DNA of 34,146 nucleotides from a virus (Duplodnaviria; Heunggongvirae; Uroviricota; Caudoviricetes), in IMG/VR virus record IMGVR_UViG_2541047954_000008; one strand, given 5' to 3'. Below the pieces are notes generated by a model. The model saw only the letters and a program-made list of their open reading frames with translations, was not told the origin of the DNA and searched no databases. This document shows positions 17,764 to 33,255 of the stretch, in pieces (position 1 is the first letter of the stretch; each line of letters begins with the position of its first letter). The position numbers and the translations under genes were made by a program.

Positions 17764-17838
<75 letters not shown>

Positions 17839-17841
17839 ATA

Positions 17842-17917
<76 letters not shown>

Positions 17918-17919
17918 AC

Positions 17920-17996
17920 TGGACCGCCACCGGGGACTCGAACCTCGCACACTCAACTTAAAGGGTTGACGCTCTTTCCTGATGAGCTAGTGGCGG
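17920..17996 (-). tRNA. tRNA-like gene, anticodon UUU (Lys) if canonical, with C at position 33
   Basis: Acceptor CCGCCAC/GTGGCGG, anticodon stem UCAAC/GUUGA, loop CCUUUAA, encoded CCA; noncanonical C33 and one T-stem mismatch. Confidence 0.5.
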
Positions 17997-17997
17997 T

Positions 17998-18073
17998 TGG
18001 TGGCCCTTGCTGGATTTGAACCAGCAACCTGGCGATTATGAGTCGCTCGCTCTCACCACTGAGCTAAAGGGCC
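17998..18073 (-). tRNA. tRNA with CAU anticodon (Ile2 lysidine-type or Met), ileX/ileZ-like
   Basis: Acceptor GGCCCUU, anticodon loop CUCAUAA, T-loop TTCAAAT, encoded CCA. Confidence 0.7.
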
Positions 18074-18198: not shown

Positions 18199-18972
18199 TT
18201 AACGTACTCTGACTACATTAATTTTGAAGTCATCAATCTGCCCGCTATTAAGTATAACGAATGTAGAACTCCCATTACTGTACGATTCCGACAATATCAG
18301 CCGATCATCATAGCGTGCAAGAACGTAATACCAGACACTCTCATAGCGAATCATCTGATATTCATTCTTAAACTGGGGCTTGTACCAACCGGCAATAAGT
18401 GAAAATCCCCAGAAATAGATCATGAACCCAGCCATCATACACTCAATCCAGTGATGGCGAATAAAAGACATGTCCGAAAAAAATTTTACTGAAATAAGTC
18501 TTCTTCCTGACCTGACAAAAAACGTAATTATTAAGGCAGCAATAACGCATAAAACCAGTGCATCTGGCGCAACGCGTCGATGAATTACTGAAAACTCCAG
18601 AGCAGGCGGAACAAAAAGCAATAATATCGCCAGAAAAAGTCTGATAAAACTCAGATCCTGCACATTATTTTTTTGTTTGATCCCCAGGAAGAAAAAAACA
18701 CCTGTTCCCCATCCAATCAGGAATATAACAATGACTGTAACAGCATAAAAAAGGCTCCGGGCCACATCATCGACACCAGCCCCAACAACCCACCATGGGA
18801 AACCATAGTAAAAGGAAGTTCCCCAGCCATAGAAGTAAGCGCTCCCCCACCCAAGACAGCCCATATAAGCAACAAAAAGTGAAGAGTGCCTGAGCAGAGT
18901 ACTGTCATCCATAGCAACACCATTAACAACCCAAAAACATAACAACACATTGCATAACAAATGAAGCTCCAT
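18199..18972 (-). CDS. AT-rich cargo gene: polytopic membrane protein (about 6 TM helices, ~65-aa C-terminal tail), function unknown
   Basis: 257-aa ORF in a visibly AT-rich segment; hydrophobic runs e.g. FYAVTVIVIFLIGWGTGVFFFLGI; between the tR'-like terminator and the tRNA array. Confidence 0.6.
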   Translation of the reverse strand: MELHLLCNVLLCFWVVNGVAMDDSTLLRHSSLFVAYMGCLGWGSAYFYGWGTSFYYGFPWWVVGAGVDDVARSLFYAVTVIVIFLIGWGTGVFFFLGIKQKNNVQDLSFIRLFLAILLLFVPPALEFSVIHRRVAPDALVLCVIAALIITFFVRSGRRLISVKFFSDMSFIRHHWIECMMAGFMIYFWGFSLIAGWYKPQFKNEYQMIRYESVWYYVLARYDDRLILSESYSNGSSTFVILNSGQIDDFKINVVRVR

Positions 18973-19141: not shown

Positions 19142-19831
19142 TCAATCTACTTTTGCAACACTTTGCTTTGAAAATGCCGCCTTTTGTATTGAACGTATTC
19201 TCATTACAAACAATAAAGCCTCACTATCCAGTCGGTGAAAAATGTGTTTCATTGCAACCCAGTGACGAGTAAATGTTTTGGACCAGTTTTTAGTTGTCAC
19301 TCCCGCCAGTAATGCCAGCTCCTGGTATTCATAACCTTCCCCACCAAAAAGTTCTGCTTTTACTGCCTGCGCCGCCAGCCAGATTAATTTTTTCAGGCGT
19401 TCCTGCGTTTTCCCTGCAATTTTTCTGGTACCGGATTGAGTATTAAATTCATTCCACGCCCACTGTGTTATCGCGATCTGATATTCCCAACAAATACTCC
19501 CGCTGTAACACCACAACAACCAGGCTTTATGATGTTCTTCAAGAGACAGAACAGCCCGCCGCCACGATGATGTCGAAAACTCAACCGGACTGACCAGAGG
19601 AATTGACGTCCCCTTCGCCAGCGATTGCTTTCCCGGGATTGGTGGATTATCCCGCGTTATCATTTTTCCAGTCACTTCATCGCGGTACCGGATTTTTTTT
19701 CGCCTGTAACGCCCTGTATCGAACATGGCATTCTCTTGCCAGGCTTCAAGCTGACCTTTTGTTGCCCCACTCAAATCAGCGGTGGCGATAATGAGCTGCT
19801 CACGCACAAACTGTAAATACTGGTTATTCAT
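19142..19831 (-). CDS. Putative late-gene antiterminator (Q-like)
   Basis: ATG 19831-19829 overlaps RusA stop (ATGA), GGAG upstream; position between RusA and a terminator preceding the lysis genes. Call by synteny. Confidence 0.55.
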   Translation of the reverse strand: MNNQYLQFVREQLIIATADLSGATKGQLEAWQENAMFDTGRYRRKKIRYRDEVTGKMITRDNPPIPGKQSLAKGTSIPLVSPVEFSTSSWRRAVLSLEEHHKAWLLWCYSGSICWEYQIAITQWAWNEFNTQSGTRKIAGKTQERLKKLIWLAAQAVKAELFGGEGYEYQELALLAGVTTKNWSKTFTRHWVAMKHIFHRLDSEALLFVMRIRSIQKAAFSKQSVAKVD

Positions 19832-20193
19832 GCGCACTCCAGTTCTGTGATTTTTATCCCCAGCCGCCCACCAGGAACGAGCTGACCGCGCACAATATTG
19901 ATTTCATCAAACTGCTCGTCGTCTATAAGTAGTCCGGCATGCGTCAGCGCATCCAGTGGTGCCTTCAGGATATTGTCCAGGTCGCGGCGGCGCTTATCCG
20001 GTGGCTCTGCAATAATCTTTATCGCCAGCCTTCCGGACAGGCTTAATTTCAGCCGCTGCTGGCGAACAATTAGCGCCACATCACGGCGATAACGCTTTCC
20101 AGCTTCCGAGATGAAATACGTATTGCCATGACGTCGCCAGTAGGTATTCACCGTCGGCGGGTAAGGCAAAACAAATTCTATGCGTTCAGTCAT
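19828..20193 (-). CDS. rusA: RusA-family Holliday junction resolvase
   Basis: 121 aa; motifs YPPTVNTYWR and DKRRRDLDNILKAPLDAL recalled as RusA-like. Confidence 0.8.
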   Translation of the reverse strand: MTERIEFVLPYPPTVNTYWRRHGNTYFISEAGKRYRRDVALIVRQQRLKLSLSGRLAIKIIAEPPDKRRRDLDNILKAPLDALTHAGLLIDDEQFDEINIVRGQLVPGGRLGIKITELECA

Positions 20194-22361: not shown

Positions 22362-22517
22362 TTACTCCTCAGGTTCGTAAGCTGTGAAGACAGCGACCTC
22401 CGTCTGGCCGGTTCGGATTCGTACCTCGCAGAGGTCTTTCCTCGTTACCAGTGCCGTCACTATGACGGTTAAACAGATGACGATCAGGGCGATTAGCATC
22501 GCCTTTTGCTGCTTCAT
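22362..22517 (-). CDS. hok: Hok/Gef-family type I toxin (51 aa)
   Basis: MKQQKAMLIALIVICLTVIVTALVTRKDLCEVRIRTGQTEVAVFTAYEPEE, recalled as HokD/RelF-like; AGGAGAAG 8 nt upstream; in-frame upstream ATG at 22574 gives a 70-codon ORF. Confidence 0.85.
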   Translation of the reverse strand: MKQQKAMLIALIVICLTVIVTALVTRKDLCEVRIRTGQTEVAVFTAYEPEE

Positions 22518-22728
22518 AGCCTGCTTCTCCTTGCCTTTCGGCACGTAAGAGGCTAACCTACATGTGTTCAGCATGGATTGAGCCTCAGATTAATGTTAAG
22601 CGTCTTGCGGGACGCGTAATGTTAACTGGGGCTTTTCTCTATCTGCCGTTGGTGTTCATGCCCGAGGCAGATAGCCTCAAGCACCCGCAGCAATTCTACT
22701 TAACTCACGTCACCTCGCCAATATAAAA

Positions 22729-26142: not shown

Positions 26143-26568
26143 TCAATGTACTGCCACAGCATTTCCTGCCGGGCCACCACGGTTCATCTGATTGAAACCG
26201 GCGATTGCCACTGCGACAAAATCATCAGCGTCTCTCACCAATCGCTCCCGCGTCTCCACCAGCTCCCGAAAATAAGCTGAACTGTGGCTGCGCATTCTGG
26301 CCACCAGCAAAGGTGGCATTGCCTTTTCGATCGCTGGTAACAACGCCTGAATTTTTTCAACTGCATCAGGGGTGTCTTTCTCTACCCAGCGGAAAATTTT
26401 CTGGGTATTGCGAGCCAGGGCTTCCGGATGGCTGTCGTCATACAGTTCAGGAAACGTCATACCCAACTCAAAATAAGCCTGGGTTATTCCAGCTGCTGGA
26501 ACTTTTTCGCCATCAGGACGCGCCCAGGCATTCATCGCCATGCGGATGTGTTCATGCTTGATTTTCAT
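26143..26568 (-). CDS. YdaT-like early protein
   Basis: ATG 26568-26566 (MKIKHEHI) with AAGGGGGGA upstream; position between cro-like and O-like as in Rac ydaS-ydaT-ydaU (recalled). Confidence 0.5.
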   Translation of the reverse strand: MKIKHEHIRMAMNAWARPDGEKVPAAGITQAYFELGMTFPELYDDSHPEALARNTQKIFRWVEKDTPDAVEKIQALLPAIEKAMPPLLVARMRSHSSAYFRELVETRERLVRDADDFVAVAIAGFNQMNRGGPAGNAVAVH

Positions 26569-26794
26569 GAATCCCCCCTTGGTTAGAAGGCGGATTATGA
26601 TCAGAACCGGGAATGACAACCGTCGGTATGTGTAACTCATATTTGAGCGCCCCGGCAGTGACTGCCTGAATTAGCAACGCCCATTTCCACGGAACCTCTT
26701 CCCCCCACATGCTGACTGTGGTTTTTGACGTTCCTAGAGCTGCGGCTGTTTTAACAACTCCGCCAAAATAGCCTAATACTTCTGATTTTTTCAT
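26552..26794 (-). CDS. Cro-like HTH regulator
   Basis: 80 aa from ATG 26794-26792 (GGAG upstream); HTH-like VVKTAAALGTSKTTVSMW; divergent from cI-like gene. Confidence 0.7.
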   Translation of the reverse strand: MKKSEVLGYFGGVVKTAAALGTSKTTVSMWGEEVPWKWALLIQAVTAGALKYELHIPTVVIPGSDHNPPSNQGGIHENQA

Positions 26795-26885
26795 GAGTCG
26801 CTCCATAAAACTGAACGCCAAAAGTTTAATAATCAAAACCAAAGAAAGTCAAGAAACAAAACCATCTGTGTTTTAAAATCAAAAC
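26795..26885. promoter_or_regulatory. Divergent immunity control region with two operator-like inverted repeats
   Basis: O1 agtttaataatcaaaacc 26823-26840; O2 tgttttaaaatcaaaaca 26869-26886 abutting the cI ATG; TTGACT -35 on the cro strand. Confidence 0.5.
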
Positions 26886-27524
26886 ATGAGCAAGCAAACA
26901 ATATCTGAACGCATAACCCAACGTATGCATGCGCTAAACCTGAAAGGCAAAGACCTTGTCAATGCCACTGGCGCATCAAAAGGCTCCGTAAGTCAATGGA
27001 TGAACGGTGGAGGAGCGCCGTCCTCGCGTTACATAAGTTCACTGGCAAAGGTATTGAAAGTAAACGAAAATTGGCTTCTTAATGGAGGAGAGTTAAATAC
27101 AGGTGATTCGCTTGATCTATCTTTACCGCCGATAAAAACGGTTCCGCTACTATCACTTCAGCAGGCAGCAAGCTGGAGTGATTATATGAAAAATTCCTCA
27201 ATAACCTCTTGTGTGCAGCTTGTCGGAGAAATCCCGGCCAATACCTTTGCAGTTGTTCTAGAGAGTGACAGTATGTCAACATCTGGTGGGGGAGTTTCCA
27301 TCCCAAATGGTTCAACAGTTTTTGTTGATCCCGATCGAACCGTACAACCAGGAAATATTGTCCTTGCCTTACCCAAAGGGACCACAACACCTGTCATTCG
27401 TAAACTGGAGATAGAAGGGCCGGATATTCTTTTAGTCCCCACGAATCCTCGCTACCCTTCAATTATGCTGGATGATCTATCTTGCATATTGGGCGTATGC
27501 TTTAAAATTCAACAAGATATTTAA
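26886..27524 (+). CDS. cI-like repressor (N-terminal HTH, C-terminal S24 LexA-like peptidase)
   Basis: 212 aa; HTH GKDLVNATGASKGSVSQWMNG; C-terminal ESDSMS (Ser) and downstream Lys consistent with Ser-Lys dyad. Confidence 0.85.
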   Translation: MSKQTISERITQRMHALNLKGKDLVNATGASKGSVSQWMNGGGAPSSRYISSLAKVLKVNENWLLNGGELNTGDSLDLSLPPIKTVPLLSLQQAASWSDYMKNSSITSCVQLVGEIPANTFAVVLESDSMSTSGGGVSIPNGSTVFVDPDRTVQPGNIVLALPKGTTTPVIRKLEIEGPDILLVPTNPRYPSIMLDDLSCILGVCFKIQQDI

Positions 27525-27588
27525 CCAACCTCATCTATTTGATTAACTGTATGCCATCGTGGCGATGGCTTAACAGCTGCCTGCTTAA

Positions 27589-27637
27589 AATGTTTTGATA
27601 AAAAAACATTGACCTGAAAAGTTCATTTTTCTAAACT
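27589..27637 (+). promoter_or_regulatory. PL-like promoter with overlapping operator O3
   Basis: Perfect inverted repeat aatgtttt-gataaa-aaaacatt (27589-27610) overlapping -35 TTGACC (27609-27614), 17-bp spacer, -10 TAAACT (27632-27637). Confidence 0.45.
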
Positions 27638-27816
27638 TCATTCATTCCCTCACCCCACCCCACAGAATGCAGGGCAATACTTCGAGTTACCAGGCAGTGG
27701 TCAGGGGTTAAGTAGCCAGCCCGAGGCGTAAGAACATGACGGCAGGGTTCAACTTTAATAACTATGCAGCAGGTTTTTGTTCCGCTACCCCGGCGTTAAG
27801 GGGAAATGAGGTCAAC

Positions 27817-27972
27817 ATGGATACTATCGATCTTGGCAACAACGAATCTCTGGTGTACGGCGTGTTTCCCAACCAGGACGGCACATTCACCGCGATGACG
27901 TATACCAAAAGCAAAACGTTTAAAACCGAAAATGGTGCCCGTCGCTGGCTGGAAAGAAACTCAGGTGAGTGA
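27817..27972 (+). CDS. ydfA: YdfA-like small protein (51 aa)
   Basis: ATG 27817 with GAGG upstream; first gene of the dicB-type operon; recalled as Qin ydfA-like. Confidence 0.65.
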   Translation: MDTIDLGNNESLVYGVFPNQDGTFTAMTYTKSKTFKTENGARRWLERNSGE

Positions 27973-27973
27973 T

Positions 27974-28102
27974 ATGGATTTCGACACAATCATGGAAAAG
28001 GCTTACGAAGAATACTTCGAAGGCCTTGCCGAAGGCGAAGAAGCTCTCAGCTTCAGTGAGTTTAAACAGGCGCTTTCCAGCTCGGCAAAATCTAACGGCT
28101 GA
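27974..28102 (+). CDS. ydfB: YdfB-like small protein (42 aa)
   Basis: ATG 2 nt after ydfA stop; MDFDTIMEKAYEEYFEGLAEGEEALSFSEFKQALSSSAKSNG; below track cut-off. Confidence 0.6.
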   Translation: MDFDTIMEKAYEEYFEGLAEGEEALSFSEFKQALSSSAKSNG

Positions 28103-28131
28103 TAAGCGAAGCAGCACCGCGAGGAATCAGT

Positions 28132-28350
28132 ATGCAGAAACGAGAACCCGTCATCATCGCGCCAGACTATACCGATGATGAACTTTATGAGTGGATGCGC
28201 CAGAAAATTAATGCAGCGCAGGATCTGAAATGGGCCAATGAAGCCAGGGCTAAGCAGGCTGAAAATCTGTCCGCTCTGGAGCAGGATATCACCAATCTGG
28301 AAAAAGCAGCGGCATTAAGCATTGCCAGAATGATTACATACCCGCGTTAA
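28132..28350 (+). CDS. ydfC: YdfC-like protein (72 aa)
   Basis: Track ORF; operon position before DicF. Confidence 0.65.
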   Translation: MQKREPVIIAPDYTDDELYEWMRQKINAAQDLKWANEARAKQAENLSALEQDITNLEKAAALSIARMITYPR

Positions 28351-28467
28351 TAGCTAACCAACGAAGCTAAGGTTGGTAATTAAGGAGTTCTCCACGGGTG
28401 AGGTGGAGTGCGTGCGCCGGACACGGGTGAGCATCCGGCACTGACAGTTTACTGAAAGGATATTTCC

Positions 28468-28656
28468 ATGAAAAGTCAGACCATAACGCGAAAGCGCACG
28501 GCGAAGTTCGTCTCACTGTACGGTGTCGTTAAATTTAATTCGACCGTGCGCTTCCGGTTGTGGCAACCCGCGAAATGGCGCGGCGGTAAGTATGGCGGGG
28601 TTATTCCTTCCCCGTTGAGGACACCGGGTTGTCAGGTTGACCATACGCTTAAGTGA
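28468..28656 (+). CDS. Possible small basic protein inside the DicF precursor region
   Basis: 62-aa ORF with AAGGA 8 nt upstream; may equally be non-coding. Confidence 0.25.
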   Translation: MKSQTITRKRTAKFVSLYGVVKFNSTVRFRLWQPAKWRGGKYGGVIPSPLRTPGCQVDHTLK

Positions 28657-28687
28657 CAACCCCGCTGCAACGCCCTCTGTTATCAAT

Positions 28688-28745
28688 TTTCTGGTGACGT
28701 TTGGCGGTATCAGTTTTACTCCGTGACTGCTCTGCCGCCCTTTTT
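28688..28745 (+). ncRNA. dicF: DicF small RNA (antisense regulator of ftsZ) with hairpin and T-run terminator
   Basis: tttctggtgacgtttggcggtatcagttttactccgtgactgctctgccgcccttttt recalled as DicF; ends hand-estimated. Confidence 0.7.
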
Positions 28746-28914
28746 AAAGTGAATTTTGTGATGCGGTGAATGCGGCTAAGCGCACGCGGAACAGTTAAAA
28801 CCAAAAACAGTGTTATGGGTGGATTCTCTGTATCCGGCGTTAATTGTTAACTGGTTAACGTCACCTGGAGGCACCAGGCACCGCATCACAAAACTCATTG
28901 TTGAGGGCGCGATA

Positions 28915-29103
28915 ATGAAAACGTTATTACCAAACGTTAATACGTCTGAAGGTTGTTTTGAAATTGGTGTCACTATCAGTAATCCTGTATTTACTGAAGA
29001 TGCCATTAACAAAAGAAAACACGAACGGGAGTTATTAAATAAAGTATGCATTGTTTCAATGCTGGCCCGTTTACGTCTGATGCCAAAAGGATGTGCACAA
29101 TGA
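28915..29103 (+). CDS. dicB: Cell division inhibitor DicB (62 aa)
   Basis: MKTLLPNVNTSEGCFEIGVTISNPVFTEDAINKRK..., recalled as near-identical to K-12 DicB; GAGGG upstream. Confidence 0.8.
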   Translation: MKTLLPNVNTSEGCFEIGVTISNPVFTEDAINKRKHERELLNKVCIVSMLARLRLMPKGCAQ

Positions 29104-29291
29104 ATCCAGTATTTGCACTTATTCTGACGGTTTTTCTTGTTTCCGGAGAGCCAGTTGATATTGCAGTCAGTGTTCACAGAACAATGCAGGAATGTATGGC
29201 AGCAGCAACCGAACAGAAAATTCCAGGCAACTGTTATCCGGTCGATAAAGTTATTCACCAGGATAATAACGAAATCCCGGCAGGATTTTAA
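29100..29291 (+). CDS. ydfD: YdfD-like lysis-associated small membrane protein (63 aa)
   Basis: ATG overlaps dicB stop (ATGA); hydrophobic N-terminus MNPVFALILTVFLVSG. Confidence 0.7.
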   Translation: MNPVFALILTVFLVSGEPVDIAVSVHRTMQECMAAATEQKIPGNCYPVDKVIHQDNNEIPAGF

Positions 29292-29384
29292 AACAGCACC
29301 GTAATAAATATCCAGTTTCATTCTTATATGTCAGCAATGGCAGAGATTTGTTCACACTTAAATCTGTGATGAGGTTTACCAATA

Positions 29385-31826
29385 ATGAGCACTGATAAAG
29401 AAGAATTTGCACTATATTGCGAAGCAAAAAATGACAAAGTAAGAAAACGCCTAGGAATTAAAGGTGGTTTTTACTGGACTACAGCAAAAAAATTATCTGT
29501 TGCAATCTCCCGCTGCATTACCGCAATGGATGACAACGATTATGATGAAGACGACTTTAAAAAACCCGTCCGCGTCAATTTGCCCGTTGTTGACGACCTT
29601 CCGCCAGAAGGCGTGTTTGATACTGAATTCTGCAACCGCTATGAAAAAGGCGGGAAAGATGGCATCACAATGACATTTATCGGCCCTTCCCCCTCTGTTC
29701 AGGACAAACCAGCCAGCACTGACAATACCAACATCAACGGCGAAGACATGACTGAGATTGAGGAGAGCATGCTTCTGCCTGTCTCCGGTCAGGAACTGCC
29801 CATTCGTTGGCTTGCTCAACACGGCAGCGAAAAACCAGTAACGCACGTTTCACGCGACGAACTCCAGGCATTACACATTGCACGGGCTGAAGAACTACCG
29901 GCTGTTACTGCCCTGGCTATTTCGCATAAAACCAGTCTGCTCGACTCGCTGGAGATTCGCGACCTCCACAAACTGGTTCGTGACACTGACAAAGTTTTCC
30001 CTAATCCTGGTAATTCAGACCTGGGACTAATAACTGCTTTTTTCGAAGCATACCTGGACGCTGACTACACTGATCGGGGTCTGCTGACAAAAGAGTGGAT
30101 GAAAGGAAATCGTGTTTCACGCATCACCCGCACGGCTTCCGGTGCTAATGCTGGCGGTGGGAACAAAACCGATCGCAATCCGAATTTAGTACACACCCTC
30201 GACACACTGGATGTGGAGATTGCAGCAGCCACACTTCCGATGGATTTTAATATTTATGAAATTCCGGGCAGCGTTTATCGTCGCGCAAAAGAAGTAGTCC
30301 TGAACAAAGAAAGTCCGTTCAAAGAATGGTCCGCAGCACTTCGTGCAACCCCGGGTATTCTGGACTATTCCCGCGCCGCTATTTTTGCACTTATCCGAAG
30401 CGCACACCCTGAATTTTATCACTACCCGGGACGCCTTCAGGGGTATATCAACGCCTATTTGACGGAAACTGATCACGAGAACCCCAGCAAGGAAACTCTC
30501 ACAGCTGCCCGGCATACGCCGGAAAAAGATATCCTGGAAAAAATTAACCGCGAGGTGGTTACTGAGCGTGAAACAGAAGAAGAAAAACCACAACCATCTG
30601 ACGCAATGGCAGGTGAACAGGCAACAACTGAAACAATGGAACCGGATACAACTGAACATGGCCAGAACGCGCAGTCGCTGGATGCTCAGTCGCAGGTGAG
30701 TTCCGCTAACCAAGTAAAAGTCACCGCTGACGAAGTAAACAAAATTATGCAGGCAGCCAATATCAGCCAGCCTGACGCCGATAAGTTACTTGCTGTATCG
30801 CGTGGTGAATTTGTTGAGGGGATTAGCGACCCTAATGATCCGAAATGGGTCAAGGGGATCCAGACTCGCGATTCTGTGAACCAGAACCAGCATGAATCGG
30901 AACGGAACGACCAAAAAGCGGAACAAAACAGCCTAAATGCGTTACAAAACGAGCCAGAAACGAAACAATCCGAACCAGTAGCGCAACAGGAACCGGAAAA
31001 AGTCTGCACCGCCTGCGGTCAGAGCGGTGGCGGCAACTGCCCTGATTGTGGCGCGGTGATGGGCGACGCAACATACCAGGAAACATTCGATGAAGAGAAT
31101 CAGGTTGAAGTTCAGGAAAATGATCTGGAGGAAATGGAAGGCGCTGAACATCCACACAAGGAGAACCCTGGCGGCAATCAGCATCACGCCAGCGATAATA
31201 AAACTGGCGAGGCGACAGATCCCTTAATTAAGGTGAATGGTCATCATAAGCTCACATCCACCAGCAGAGCGGGGATTCATCTGATGATCGACCTTGAAAC
31301 CATGGGAAAAAATCCCGATGCCCCGATTATCTCAATAGGCGCAATATTTTTCGATCCACAAACCGGAGATATGGGACCGGAATTTAGCAAGACCATCGAT
31401 CTGGATACTGCTGGCGGAGTCATTGATCGTGACGTCATTAAATGGTGGCTGAAGCAATCACGTGAAGCGCAGTCTGCCATTATGACCGATGAAATCCCGT
31501 TAGATGATGCACTACTGCAATTGCGGGAATTTATCGACGAAAACTCCGGTGAATTTTTTGTTCAGGTCTGGGGTAATGGGGCCAACTTCGACAACGTGAT
31601 TTTACGCCGTTCATACGAACGACAGGGTATCCCCTGCCCATGGCGCTACTGCAACGATCGCGATGTACGCACAATCGTTGAGCTGGGGAAAGCCATAGAC
31701 TTCGATGCCAGAACTGCTATCCCATTCGAAGGTGAGCGCCATAATGCACTTGATGACGCTCGTTACCAGGCAAAATACGTTTCAGCTATCTGGCAAAAAC
31801 TGATCCCGAGTCAGGCTGATTTTTAA
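29385..31826 (+). CDS. 813-aa exonuclease: C-terminal DnaQ-like DEDDh 3'-5' exonuclease domain, central zinc ribbon, acidic linker
   Basis: Exo motifs MIDLETMG, GNGANFDNVIL, HNALDDARY in last ~190 aa; CTACG-x7-CPDCG at about 31006-31050; full-length relative of the truncated K-12 ydfE as recalled. Confidence 0.7.
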   Translation: MSTDKEEFALYCEAKNDKVRKRLGIKGGFYWTTAKKLSVAISRCITAMDDNDYDEDDFKKPVRVNLPVVDDLPPEGVFDTEFCNRYEKGGKDGITMTFIGPSPSVQDKPASTDNTNINGEDMTEIEESMLLPVSGQELPIRWLAQHGSEKPVTHVSRDELQALHIARAEELPAVTALAISHKTSLLDSLEIRDLHKLVRDTDKVFPNPGNSDLGLITAFFEAYLDADYTDRGLLTKEWMKGNRVSRITRTASGANAGGGNKTDRNPNLVHTLDTLDVEIAAATLPMDFNIYEIPGSVYRRAKEVVLNKESPFKEWSAALRATPGILDYSRAAIFALIRSAHPEFYHYPGRLQGYINAYLTETDHENPSKETLTAARHTPEKDILEKINREVVTERETEEEKPQPSDAMAGEQATTETMEPDTTEHGQNAQSLDAQSQVSSANQVKVTADEVNKIMQAANISQPDADKLLAVSRGEFVEGISDPNDPKWVKGIQTRDSVNQNQHESERNDQKAEQNSLNALQNEPETKQSEPVAQQEPEKVCTACGQSGGGNCPDCGAVMGDATYQETFDEENQVEVQENDLEEMEGAEHPHKENPGGNQHHASDNKTGEATDPLIKVNGHHKLTSTSRAGIHLMIDLETMGKNPDAPIISIGAIFFDPQTGDMGPEFSKTIDLDTAGGVIDRDVIKWWLKQSREAQSAIMTDEIPLDDALLQLREFIDENSGEFFVQVWGNGANFDNVILRRSYERQGIPCPWRYCNDRDVRTIVELGKAIDFDARTAIPFEGERHNALDDARYQAKYVSAIWQKLIPSQADF

Positions 31827-31884: not shown

Positions 31885-32088
31885 ATGAGCAGCTTATTTT
31901 TAACCGAAGATGAATTGCTAATATTAACGGGCTGCAAATATGCAAGCCACCAGCGAAAATGGTTAATGGAAAACGGGCTTCCGTTCTATACCAATCGTAG
32001 TGGCAAACCGATTGTCAGCCGGGATCTATTTACCTGCAATAAAACTTTACCACCACGCGAGGTAGAGCCGAATTTTGGTGCGATCTGA
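31885..32088 (+). CDS. xis: Excisionase-like DNA-binding protein
   Basis: 67 aa immediately upstream of integrase; stop overlaps integrase ATG. Confidence 0.6.
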   Translation: MSSLFLTEDELLILTGCKYASHQRKWLMENGLPFYTNRSGKPIVSRDLFTCNKTLPPREVEPNFGAI

Positions 32089-33113
32089 TGGGAAGACGAA
32101 GGAAAAATCCTGAACACGAAAAATTACCTCCAAATGTATACCCAAATAAATATAGTTATGTATGGAAACCAACATCCAGAGAATCTGTCACACTAACCGC
32201 CATCAAGGATGGTTTAGCTGCTTTATGGAAAAAGTATGAGGAAACTGTAAATAATCGCGATCGTGCAATGACATTCGGTCGCTTGTGGGAAAAATTCCTC
32301 GCCAGCGCCTATTACAGTGACCTTAGTCCAAGAACACAAAAAGATTATCTGCAACATCAAAAAAAGTTGCTTGCCGTATTCGGTAAGGTACCAGCGGATT
32401 CCATAAAACCAGAACACATCCGTCGATACATGGACAAAAGAGGGGAGCAGAGTAAAACGCAAGCCAACCATGAAAAAAGCAGTATGTCCCGTGTTTACAG
32501 TTGGGGGTATGAGCGAGGGTACGTCAAGGCTAACCCATGTGCAGGTGTAAGTAAATTCAAGGCCAAAAACCGCGAACGATATGTAACCGACAAAGAATAC
32601 CAGGCAGTATTAAGCGTTGCACCTCTTCCTGTTTTTATCGCAATGGAAATTGCCTATCTGTGTGCAGCGAGGGTTTCCGATGTGTTATCGCTGAAATGGG
32701 AACAGATTGGAAACGACGGGATATTCATCCAGCAAGGGAAAACCGGAAAAAAACAGATAAAAGCATGGAGTCCACGATTACAGGCAGCGATCGAAAAAGC
32801 AAAACAGTTACCAAAATCTGCCTATGTGATCAGCAATCAATACGGCAACCGATATATGTACAAAGGCTTTAACGAAATGTGGGTAGAAGCAAGAAATCGT
32901 GCTGGAAAAATTTCAGGTATTTTAACCGACTTCACCTTTCATGATCTGAAGGCGAAAGGAATTTCAGACTATGAAGGAAGCAGCCGGGATAAGCAACTTT
33001 TCTCTGGTCACAAAACCGAAGGGCAAGTGCTAATCTATGACAGGAAGGTTAAAGTTTCACCAACACTTGATGTCCCGTTACCTGAAAATATTCCAAGAAA
33101 ATATTCCAAGTAA
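32088..33113 (+). CDS. int: Tyrosine integrase
   Basis: 341 aa; C-terminal catalytic region with HDLK and conserved Tyr (LIYDRK); adjacent to tRNA. Confidence 0.85.
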   Translation: MGRRRKNPEHEKLPPNVYPNKYSYVWKPTSRESVTLTAIKDGLAALWKKYEETVNNRDRAMTFGRLWEKFLASAYYSDLSPRTQKDYLQHQKKLLAVFGKVPADSIKPEHIRRYMDKRGEQSKTQANHEKSSMSRVYSWGYERGYVKANPCAGVSKFKAKNRERYVTDKEYQAVLSVAPLPVFIAMEIAYLCAARVSDVLSLKWEQIGNDGIFIQQGKTGKKQIKAWSPRLQAAIEKAKQLPKSAYVISNQYGNRYMYKGFNEMWVEARNRAGKISGILTDFTFHDLKAKGISDYEGSSRDKQLFSGHKTEGQVLIYDRKVKVSPTLDVPLPENIPRKYSK

Positions 33114-33165: not shown

Positions 33166-33255
33166 TGGCGGAGAGAGGGGGATTTGAACCCCCGGTGGAG
33201 TTGCCCCCACTCCGGTTTTCGAGACCGGTCCGTTCAGCCGCTCCGGCATCTCTCC
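33166..33255 (-). tRNA. serU: tRNA-Ser (anticodon CGA), host gene serving as att site
   Basis: 90-nt cloverleaf with long variable arm: GGAGAGATGCCGGAGCGGCTGAACGGACCGGTCTCGAAAACCGG...CTCTCCGCCA. Confidence 0.8.

Follow-up and report, generated by a model that had tools for sequence, protein, structure and literature searches.

An intact dicBF operon in the PL position of a lambda-like Escherichia coli prophage

Positions 27817-29291 of a 34,146-nt stretch of viral DNA (IMG/VR record IMGVR_UViG_2541047954_000008; the whole stretch is called the window here) contain ydfA, ydfB, ydfC, DicF, dicB, and ydfD, in that order. With a probability of about 0.9, the locus is an ordinary, intact dicBF operon that serves as the PL operon of a lambda-like E. 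coli prophage inserted at tRNA-Ser beside mtfA. An initial annotation had proposed the presence and order of these parts, and each named feature is where it was reported. That the operon is intact is borne out by matches to Rfam, Pfam, and NCBIfam models and by near-identity to the genes of K-12. The proposed PL position also holds, with a cI-like repressor gene and a promoter-like site with an operator upstream, and an exonuclease gene, a xis-like gene, an integrase gene, and tRNA-Ser downstream. The arrangement is common, with about one in five complete E. coli genomes carrying it, and has already been published, including in working phages.

Genes and small RNA of the operon

All parts of the operon are on the plus strand. 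The first gene, ydfA (27817-27972), encodes a 51-aa DUF1391 protein (PF07151, 98.5 bits) and is followed by ydfB (27974-28102; 42 aa), which carries this name in annotated relatives, and by ydfC (28132-28350; 72 aa; phrog_1744). The YdfA, YdfB, and YdfC proteins are each 100% identical to those of K-12. Alignment with the Qin prophage of K-12 gives 95.8% nucleotide identity over positions 27779-29376 of the window, and neither the small RNA nor dicB is divergent or truncated relative to the K-12 genes.

The DicF small RNA and its intrinsic terminator lie at 28689-28745 (stem 28703-28739; U-tract TTTTT at 28741-28745). The Rfam model RF00039 is matched over its full length (28689-28740, model positions 1-52 of 52) with 76.7 bits against a gathering score of 48 (E 1.9e-15). 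Since the 53-mer is identical to that of K-12, the regions through which it would pair with the ftsZ, manX, xylR, and pykA mRNAs are the same as in the characterised DicF.

The dicB gene (28915-29103) encodes a 62-aa cell-division inhibitor that matches PF05358 over all 62 model positions (135.4 bits; cut-off 27) and NCBIfam NF049927 with 134.3 bits (cut-off 100). It shares 60 of 62 residues with K-12 DicB, the differences being Q35H and I43V, both of which recur in the DicB proteins that RefSeq lists for many strains; the protein is identical to the one that RefSeq names DicB in E. coli G5. From its near-identity to K-12 DicB, the protein would be expected to block FtsZ ring assembly in a MinC-dependent manner. 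The last gene, ydfD (29100-29291), encodes a 63-aa DUF1482 protein (PF07358, 87.9 bits) that shares 56 of 63 residues with its K-12 counterpart and is listed by RefSeq as "lysis protein YdfD".

Immunity region and PL promoter

The operon is downstream of and co-oriented with a gene for a lambda-cI-like repressor (26886-27524, plus strand; 212 aa), which has a helix-turn-helix domain (PF01381) and an S24 peptidase domain (PF00717). Divergent from it on the minus strand is a cro-like repressor gene (26552-26794; PF14549 P22_Cro, 56.9 bits), whose length of 243 nt equals that of the Cro/CI annotation in a 98.9%-identical relative. Perfect 18-bp palindromes of the form TGTTTT-N6-AAAACA occur only twice in the 34-kb window. 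The OR-side operator candidate, TGTTTTAAAATCAAAACA (26869-26886), is in the cro/cI intergenic region, and the OL-side candidate, TGTTTTGATAAAAAAACA (27591-27608), abuts the -35 element of a predicted PL-like sigma-70 promoter on the plus strand (27609-27637; TTGACC, 17 nt, TAAACT; 9/12 in a consensus scan). The putative PL promoter is thus abutted by a palindrome that is also present at the putative OR. This promoter and immunity module differs from K-12 dicBp, because homology to K-12 begins only at 27779.

In an alignment that spans the entire cI-like repressor, lambda repressor 3bdn matches it (E 5e-10) and the Ser/Lys dyad is kept: SDSM has its Ser in line with that of the GNSM motif, and IRKL its Lys in line with that of FKKL. 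In self-cleaving repressors of the LexA/lambda-cI kind, the bond that is cut is Ala-Gly or Cys-Gly. Where lambda cI has Gln-Ala-Gly-Met at its Ala111-Gly112 cleavage site, the window repressor has Gln-Ala-Ala-Ser, and the Ala-Ala at the canonical Ala-Gly site therefore makes direct SOS cleavage of the repressor uncertain. Between PL and ydfA, the sole ORF is an N-terminal extension of ydfA, and no N-like antiterminator gene is seen. An antitermination element of the put or nut type was considered for the 187-nt PL leader and rejected: the leader folds no better than shuffled sequences (z = +1.3), and it is mosaic, occurring in several variants that are unrelated to one another.

Exonuclease, integrase, and attachment site

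Downstream of ydfD, the operon runs into genes for an exonuclease, a DUF4224 protein, and an integrase and then into tRNA-Ser, an order that makes this a true PL layout. The exonuclease gene (29385-31826, plus strand) encodes 813 aa with a RecE-N-terminal-like region (PF06630) and an Rv2179c-like 3'-5' exonuclease domain (PF16473). It had been described at first as a full-length exonuclease in place of the truncated ydfE of K-12, a description that fails insofar as it implies a homologue: the 813-aa protein shows no detectable similarity to the product of the K-12 ydfE pseudogene (best BLASTP E = 3.5), and nucleotide similarity to K-12 stops at 29376, before the start of the exonuclease ORF. 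As judged from these comparisons, the exonuclease is a different gene in the ydfE slot and should not be equated with ydfE. It is matched by NF007259 with 948 bits, below the cut-off of 1269 and over model positions 1-603 only, and 809 of its 813 residues are identical to those of the exonuclease of the G5 prophage.

The DUF4224 protein (31885-32088, plus strand; PF13986, 57 bits) may, from its position, be the excisionase. The tyrosine integrase gene (32088-33113, plus strand; 341 aa; PF00589, PF22022, PF14659) is intact, whereas its homologue in the nearest genome is frameshifted. The host tRNA-Ser(CGA) that forms the integration site was located by ARAGORN on the minus strand (33166-33255) and is followed by host mtfA; the tRNA-Ser/mtfA junction is also found in annotated relatives.

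State of the prophage

The initial annotation also took the prophage to look fully functional. This may be so: every module visible in the window is intact. The genes for the repressor, Cro, integrase, replication, Q, lysis, terminase, portal, capsid, and tape-measure proteins are all open and full length. Those for replication, Q, lysis, head, and tail are uninterrupted in the window and 94-98% identical to annotated prophages and phages, and no IS elements are seen in the window. It is a reasonable inference that the prophage is inducible and that DicB and DicF would be made on induction, as the initial annotation had supposed. We leave their production on induction at that strength because the window ends inside gene J, the repressor has the Ala-Ala site, and no N-like antiterminator is seen.

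Some of these features bear on a different explanation, in which the prophage is defective, like Qin in K-12, and the operon is a domesticated module that is controlled by the host outside any productive lytic cycle. The left end of the window falls inside tail gene J, so that the tail tip, the tail fibres, and the other attachment site (attL) lie beyond it; this, together with Ala-Ala in place of Ala-Gly in the repressor, is what a defective element might present. In close relatives, cro and the integrase gene contain frameshifts and the repressor is annotated as truncated, and most dicBF-bearing prophages are regarded as defective in the literature (PMC5069750). However, the phage genes listed above are all open and full length here, IS elements are not seen, the same operon layout occurs in the deposited complete genome of phage Tritos, and mEp460_ev081, which carries dicB and dicF, has been described as a functional phage (PMC10448788). 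A defective prophage is therefore rather unlikely.

The DicF precursor and the non-coding core

Between ydfC and DicF, a long hairpin is predicted at 28482-28562 on the plus strand, with arms at 28482-28501 and 28544-28562 and a variable apex at 28502-28543. DicF of K-12 is released through a 190-nt species that is made by RNase III and accumulates stably; the processing model and transcript sizes have been published (PMC10448788). Counted back from the terminator, 190 nt would put the end made by RNase III within the 3' arm, near 28552-28556, and the corresponding species of about 190 nt at approximately 28552-28745 on the plus strand. RNase III thus probably cuts this hairpin and so defines the 5' end of the species. 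Support for it comes from conservation and from the published RNase III end, not from covariation: RNAalifold, run on 76 distinct sequences, recovers the stem in almost every one, the changes are one-sided or G-U, and 0 compensatory pairs were found.

The block at 28544-28688 is present in 94 of 94 distinct DicF loci with a nucleotide diversity (pi) of 0.021, and the 170-nt spacer between dicF and dicB (28746-28914) in all 94 with a pi of 0.037, compared with 0.044 for dicB and 0.09 for ydfA; the loci were picked by an exact DicF 26-mer, so sequence linked to it is biased towards similarity. Over 28351-28750 (400 nt), the RNA is predicted to fold more stably than shuffled sequences (z = -3.1). 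No paralogue of the precursor block was found elsewhere in the window, which was a further ground for rejecting an antitermination element.

In the dicB 5' leader, at 28752-28892 on the plus strand, there is a weak match to STnc100 (RF02076), with 38.8 bits against a gathering score of 47 (E ~1e-6) and over model positions 21-154 of 206. We record this sub-threshold, partial match as a side note. Canonical copies of STnc100 are found downstream of stx2 (PMC12370729), and in the ncRNA table of EDL933 they are, by our arithmetic from the published coordinates, roughly 10-15 kb from the DicF copies (PMC5331693).

These data also raise the question of whether the non-coding core, made up of the pre-DicF block (28544-28688), from which the 190-nt DicF species retains an extension of ~137 nt, and the spacer (28746-28914), has an RNA function beyond that of a precursor and leader. 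The core may act as a regulatory long isoform of DicF or as an STnc100-related element that controls dicB, or it may work in cis to adjust the amount of transcription and translation reaching dicB and exo-xis-int in a phage without an N antiterminator. The presence of both segments, alone among the parts of the locus, in every DicF locus examined, at a diversity lower than that of dicB and ydfA, the stable fold, the STnc100 match, and the stable 190-nt species of K-12 (PMC10448788) all point in this direction. Nevertheless, the conservation is biased by the choice of loci, none of the predicted pairs shows compensatory change, the STnc100 match falls below its gathering score and covers part of the model, and the needs of RNase III/RNase E processing and of dicB translation can account for the conservation by themselves. 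An additional RNA function is thus quite improbable, and the preferred reading of the core remains that of DicF precursor and dicB leader.

The 62-codon open reading frame

The initial annotation had pointed to a 62-codon ORF of uncertain reality in the DicF precursor region. The open frame at 28468-28656 on the plus strand does exist, but it is not conserved as a gene; it is a chance frame across the DicF precursor RNA. Its status was counted across 97 distinct variants in an alignment anchored on the stop codon. The start-codon position is CTG in 68 variants, TCG in 18, and ATG in only 10, and besides the ATG-bearing variants only two others retain an ATG ORF of ~64 aa. In K-12, the ATG is a CTG and an in-frame TAG follows 13 codons later; the nearest relative (98.9% identical) has an in-frame TAG at the same distance. 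Among variants, the frame is broken or shifted by stops, by indels, and by a 1-nt polymorphism in the length of a C-run. Through the C-run polymorphism, found in ~40% of variants, an entirely different peptide is encoded upstream, even though nucleotide identity remains ~99%.

Variable columns at codon positions 1, 2, and 3 number 7, 11, and 14 in the ORF versus 25, 20, and 41 in dicB in the same alignment, so the ORF has no excess at the third position, although with ~32 variable sites the power is modest. Its peptide has no matches in Pfam or NCBIfam, and the frame runs across both the hairpin and the body of the 190-nt DicF precursor, whose formation by RNase III has been published and which is known from experiments to be a substrate of RNA processing (PMC10448788). 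That the ORF is nonetheless a real, lineage-specific small basic protein translated, in prophages of this group, from the spacer between ydfC and dicF is very improbable in the face of this evidence, even with a plausible Shine-Dalgarno sequence (AAGGA) 7 nt before the ATG, a frame open for at least 62 codons in ~24 of the 97 variants, and a match of the peptide to phrog_8854 (E 3e-30), from which it follows that gene callers predict the ORF in other phage genomes. The ORF, which is carried by some phage annotations and by a PHROG family, should not be annotated as a gene.

A model for expression of the operon

In a lysogen, the cI-like repressor would hold the operon off by binding the TGTTTT-N6-AAAACA operators in the cro/cI intergenic region and at the -35 element of PL. 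Once repression is lost, transcription from PL would proceed through ydfA, ydfB, and ydfC into a structured non-coding stretch of ~560 nt, and some transcripts would end at the intrinsic terminator of DicF itself. A cut by RNase III in the hairpin at 28482-28562 would yield the ~190-nt species, from which RNase E would produce the 53-nt DicF; with Hfq, DicF would then repress the ftsZ, manX, xylR, and pykA mRNAs. Both the processing and the targets in this scheme are taken by analogy from the K-12 literature. Transcripts that read through the terminator would allow DicB and YdfD to be made and, further on, the exonuclease, the xis-like protein, and the integrase. DicB would recruit MinC via ZipA, leading to the break-up of the FtsZ ring, and would block the ManYZ entry route of lambda-like phages, while YdfD would act as a lysis protein.

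Earlier publications cover the dicBF operon with its processing and functions as well as its wide distribution among E. coli prophages, and a functional temperate phage with the operon has been noted (PMC10448788). What the present locus illustrates is that roughly one in five complete E. coli genomes has dicBF coupled to a repressor of the cI/S24 type in place of the DicA/Rem system known from work on K-12; therefore, the signals that switch the operon on may differ between strains.

Comparison with known systems

Of 5426 complete E. coli genomes, 4764 have a match to the operon, and 1041 have the repressor-PL-ydfA junction of the window. In K-12, Qin has the same genes in the same order over a stretch that starts 38 nt before ydfA and closes with ydfD (95.8% nucleotide identity). 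The two differ at the apex of the hairpin (an ATG/indel difference) and on both sides of the operon. The immunity region of Qin consists of the 135-aa DicA/DicC system and dicBp, whereas in the window this place is taken by a 212-aa repressor of the cI/S24 type that comes with separate operators and a separate promoter. Downstream of ydfD, Qin has the ydfE pseudogene with an IS2 remnant, whereas the window has the unrelated 813-aa exonuclease. Compared with Qin, the prophage in the window looks undegraded.

Phage Tritos (OV696610) has the layout seen here: a CI repressor, ydfA/B/C, an annotated DicF, dicB, ydfD, an exonuclease of ~820 aa, an excisionase, and an integrase. Its operon is 96.2% identical to that of the window. 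The exonuclease allele differs (823 aa in Tritos versus 813 aa), and both Tritos (140 aa) and mEp460 (LR597641) have a short DicA-like repressor in contrast to the 212-aa repressor of the window; mEp460 also has the Rem antirepressor. A literature search on phage Tritos returned nothing relevant. Records of the ON4705xx series, named "Escherichia phage vB_Eco...", were considered as proof of phage particles and rejected; they contain mtfA, tRNA-Asn, and yersiniabactin genes, and because host flanking genes are included they are prophage predictions.

The PL operon of lambda offers a more distant parallel. It includes kil, an inhibitor of FtsZ, so that a division inhibitor is likewise located between the repressor and exo/xis/int (PMC3961180). 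Unlike lambda, the window has neither an N gene nor a recognisable nut site, and its operon contains an intrinsic terminator, that of DicF, in the middle. The inhibitor is Kil in lambda, and DicB together with a small RNA in the window. Both share the order repressor-PL-...-exo-xis-int-att, with an inhibitor that is expressed on derepression in lambda and would presumably be so in the window.

Operon content and conservation

The operon carries ydfA (27817–27972; Pfam DUF1391, 98.5 bits), ydfB (27974–28102), ydfC (28132–28350), DicF (28689–28740; full model of Rfam RF00039, 76.7 bits against a gathering score of 48), dicB (28915–29103; Pfam DicB, 135.4 bits; NCBIfam NF049927, 134.3 bits against a cut-off of 100) and ydfD (29100–29291; DUF1482), in this order on the plus strand, as the initial annotation had listed them. 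Alignment of 27779–29376 with the annotated Qin region of K-12 MG1655 gives 95.8% identity. YdfA, YdfB and YdfC do not differ from the K-12 proteins, DicB differs at two residues (Q35H and I43V) and YdfD at seven, and the 53 nt of DicF and the terminator are unchanged. Thus, neither DicF nor dicB is divergent or truncated relative to K-12. The operon is the ordinary arrangement, already described; the initial annotation is confirmed as an observation and partly supported as an interpretation.

One part that fails concerns the 813-aa exonuclease downstream of ydfD, which had been taken for a full-length counterpart of K-12 ydfE, itself truncated. Homology to ydfE is ruled out by BLASTP against the K-12 pseudogene product, which returned nothing (best E = 3.5), and by the K-12 nucleotide similarity, which stops at 29376, short of the start of the exonuclease ORF. 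The protein joins a RecE-N-terminal-like region (PF06630) to an Rv2179c-like 3'-5' exonuclease domain (PF16473); the RecE-like region also matches NF007259, over model positions 1–603 only and under the model's cut-off. Phage Tritos and many E. coli prophages have the same gene 3' of ydfD.

Layout of the PL region

The placement of the operon at the early-left promoter (PL) position is borne out by its surroundings. A co-oriented, cI-like repressor of 212 aa with HTH and Peptidase_S24 domains lies upstream (26886–27524, plus strand), and a P22-Cro-like gene identified by profile match (26552–26794) diverges from it. A consensus scan finds a promoter-like site, TTGACC-17-TAAACT, at 27609–27637 (plus strand). 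Across the 34-kb window, the 18-bp palindrome TGTTTT-N6-AAAACA occurs without mismatch just twice: one copy adjoins the -35 element of this site (27591–27608, candidate OL) and the other lies between cro and cI (26869–26886, candidate OR), the pattern that would be expected for OL/OR. Downstream of ydfD follow, in order, the exonuclease, a DUF4224 protein in the xis position, an intact 341-aa tyrosine integrase, the host tRNA-Ser(CGA) and host mtfA. Together, these elements reproduce the layout of the lambda PL operon. No N-like gene was found among the ORFs between PL and ydfA, and 27525–27816 (plus strand) holds no recognizable nut or put element; the intrinsic terminator of DicF nevertheless sits mid-operon, 5' of dicB, exo, xis and int.

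The PL–ydfA leader (27651–27778 and 27736–27816, plus strand) is a mosaic module common to many non-K-12 copies and missing in K-12, and it folds no better than shuffled sequences. It supplies an in-frame upstream ATG at 27736 that gives a 78-aa "YdfA", a product mislabelled "head-DNA stabilization protein D" in several phage records.

The repressor aligns over its full length to lambda cI (3bdn, E 5e-10) and keeps the catalytic Ser and Lys motifs. At residues ~92–96 it has Gln-Ala-Ala-Ser, whereas the self-cleavage site of lambda cI is Gln-Ala-Gly-Met; because Ala-Ala aligns with the scissile Ala111-Gly112 bond, direct RecA-stimulated cleavage is uncertain. In strain 2013C-3264, whose copy is 99.8% identical, the RefSeq annotation is limited to a 112-aa C-terminal "LexA family protein".

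Judging from this layout, repressor bound to the two palindromes would hold PL off, and on derepression RNA polymerase would proceed through ydfABC and the structured spacer. DicF, with Hfq, would repress ftsZ and other mRNAs, as in the K-12 literature for the identical sequence. Read-through transcripts would yield DicB and YdfD, followed by the exonuclease, the xis-like gene product and the integrase. DicB would cause MinC/ZipA-dependent disassembly of the FtsZ ring and inhibit ManYZ, and YdfD would act as a lysis protein.

The DicF precursor and the 62-codon reading frame

According to Ragunathan et al. (2023; PMC10448788), DicF is cut from a polycistronic transcript: RNase III makes the 5' end of a stable 190-nt species and RNase E yields the 53-nt DicF; the transcripts either stop at the DicF terminator (1146 nt) or extend through ydfD (1608 nt). 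Measured from the terminator, a length of 190 nt reaches back to ~28552–28556, inside the 3' arm of a long hairpin predicted by RNAalifold from 76 distinct sequences (arms 28482–28501 and 28544–28562). A 62-codon basic frame flagged in the ydfC–dicF spacer (28468–28656) therefore runs through both the processing hairpin and the body of the 190-nt species. Across the 76 sequences the stem is kept nearly universally, with one-sided or G-U changes and no compensatory ones, and its apex is an indel-rich variable block.

The frame exists as an ORF; AAGGA lies 7 nt upstream of its ATG, and its match to phrog_8854 ("unknown function", E 3e-30) means that gene finders call it in some phage genomes. 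Comparison of variants argues against a gene. Loci with the exact DicF 26-mer were collected from IMG/VR and GTDB genomes (128 loci, in which the 405 nt that end in DicF fall into 97 distinct versions). At the start position, 68 versions read CTG, 18 TCG and only 10 ATG, and just two versions besides the window keep an ATG-started ORF of ~64 aa. K-12 and the window's closest relative (98.9% identical) share a TAG, in frame, after 13 codons; it falls in a block (~28501–28543) that varies by indels between lineages. About 40% of the distinct precursor variants have one extra C in the C-run at ~28605–28612 (plus strand; column 154 of A2, the alignment of these variants), which shifts the frame and changes the whole upstream peptide while the nucleotides stay ~99% identical. 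Variable columns by codon position number 7/11/14 in the ORF against 25/20/41 in dicB in the same alignment, showing no third-position excess, and the ORF has no match in Pfam or NCBIfam. On these comparisons, the frame resolves to an artefact of conserved RNA.

Among 94 distinct loci, block 28544–28688 and the dicF–dicB spacer are present in all (diversity 0.021 and 0.037), dicB-like sequence of at least 80% identity in 73 (0.044) and ydfC-like sequence in only 41; because DicF itself was the selection criterion, sequence linked to it is biased towards similarity, and the low values are only consistent with constraint at the RNA level. The dicF–dicB spacer also resembles the prophage sRNA family STnc100, at a score below threshold, over 28752–28892 (plus strand; RF02076, 38.8 bits against a gathering score of 47, E ~1e-6, model positions 21–154 of 206); no canonical copy reaches threshold across the whole window.

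Two of the collected loci, L006 (5080–5105) and L007 (88–113), carry the exact 26-mer with E. coli-like flanks in MAGs labelled Veillonella parvula and Collinsella sp.; E. coli prophage DNA contaminating the bins is the most likely source of these contigs.

Prophage context

The prophage had been described as looking fully functional. As far as the window reaches, its genes are uninterrupted: replication initiator (phrog_3729), DUF977 protein, RusA, DUF968, Q, four tRNAs, lysis genes, HNH endonuclease, both terminase subunits, portal, protease, HK97-type capsid, tail genes and tape measure, the remaining names being taken from annotated relatives (94–98% identical). However, the left end falls within tail gene J (333 open codons run off it), and the tail tip, fibres and second att site would lie outside the window. 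The Ala-Ala of the repressor and the lack of an N-like gene between PL and ydfA also call for caution. We infer that the prophage may be fully functional and that DicB and DicF would be produced upon induction.

The tRNAs (Gly-TCC, Thr-TGT, Lys-TTT and Met-CAT; 17764–18073, minus strand) lie downstream of Q; close relatives annotate three of them, without tRNA-Lys. Between this cluster and the antiterminator Q (19142–19837) is a 257-aa ORF (18199–18972, minus strand) with no Pfam or NCBIfam match and a sole match to phrog_1521 ("unknown function"). It may be a cargo gene, as the nearest annotated relatives have no gene of such size at this position. A sok antitoxin RNA (22512–22686, minus strand; RF01794, 113.5 bits) marks a hok/sok-type toxin–antitoxin locus, which corresponds to hokD in annotated relatives.

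Prevalence and known counterparts

Matches to a 2-kb query (27500–29500) occur in 4764 of the 5426 complete E. coli genomes, and in 1621 genomes they extend over 80% or more of the query; the repressor–PL–ydfA junction (26886–27830) is covered to at least 80% in 1041 of the 5426. Balasubramanian et al. (2016; PMC5069750) had described dicBF from many prophage settings, with O157:H7 having several copies, and Ragunathan et al. (2019; PMC6832061) assigned the operon to the PL-like promoter in the immunity region. Those "vB_Eco..." phage records most similar to the window contain host flanks and are thus prophage predictions, not particle genomes. For instance, locus L129 (ON470580.1, "Escherichia phage vB_EcoM-606R7") has host tRNA-Ser, mtfA, tRNA-Asn and yersiniabactin genes at 31711–38458, and its ON4705xx siblings apparently also contain host chromosome.

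Phage mEp460_evo81, also among our sequence matches (H34), is a functional temperate phage with dicB and dicF (Ragunathan et al., 2023; PMC10448788). Phage Tritos, in whose complete genome DicF is annotated, has the same layout as the window from repressor through integrase. Homology to K-12 Qin begins just 38 nt before ydfA, and so the promoter and immunity module of the window differs from the DicA/DicC/dicBp of K-12.
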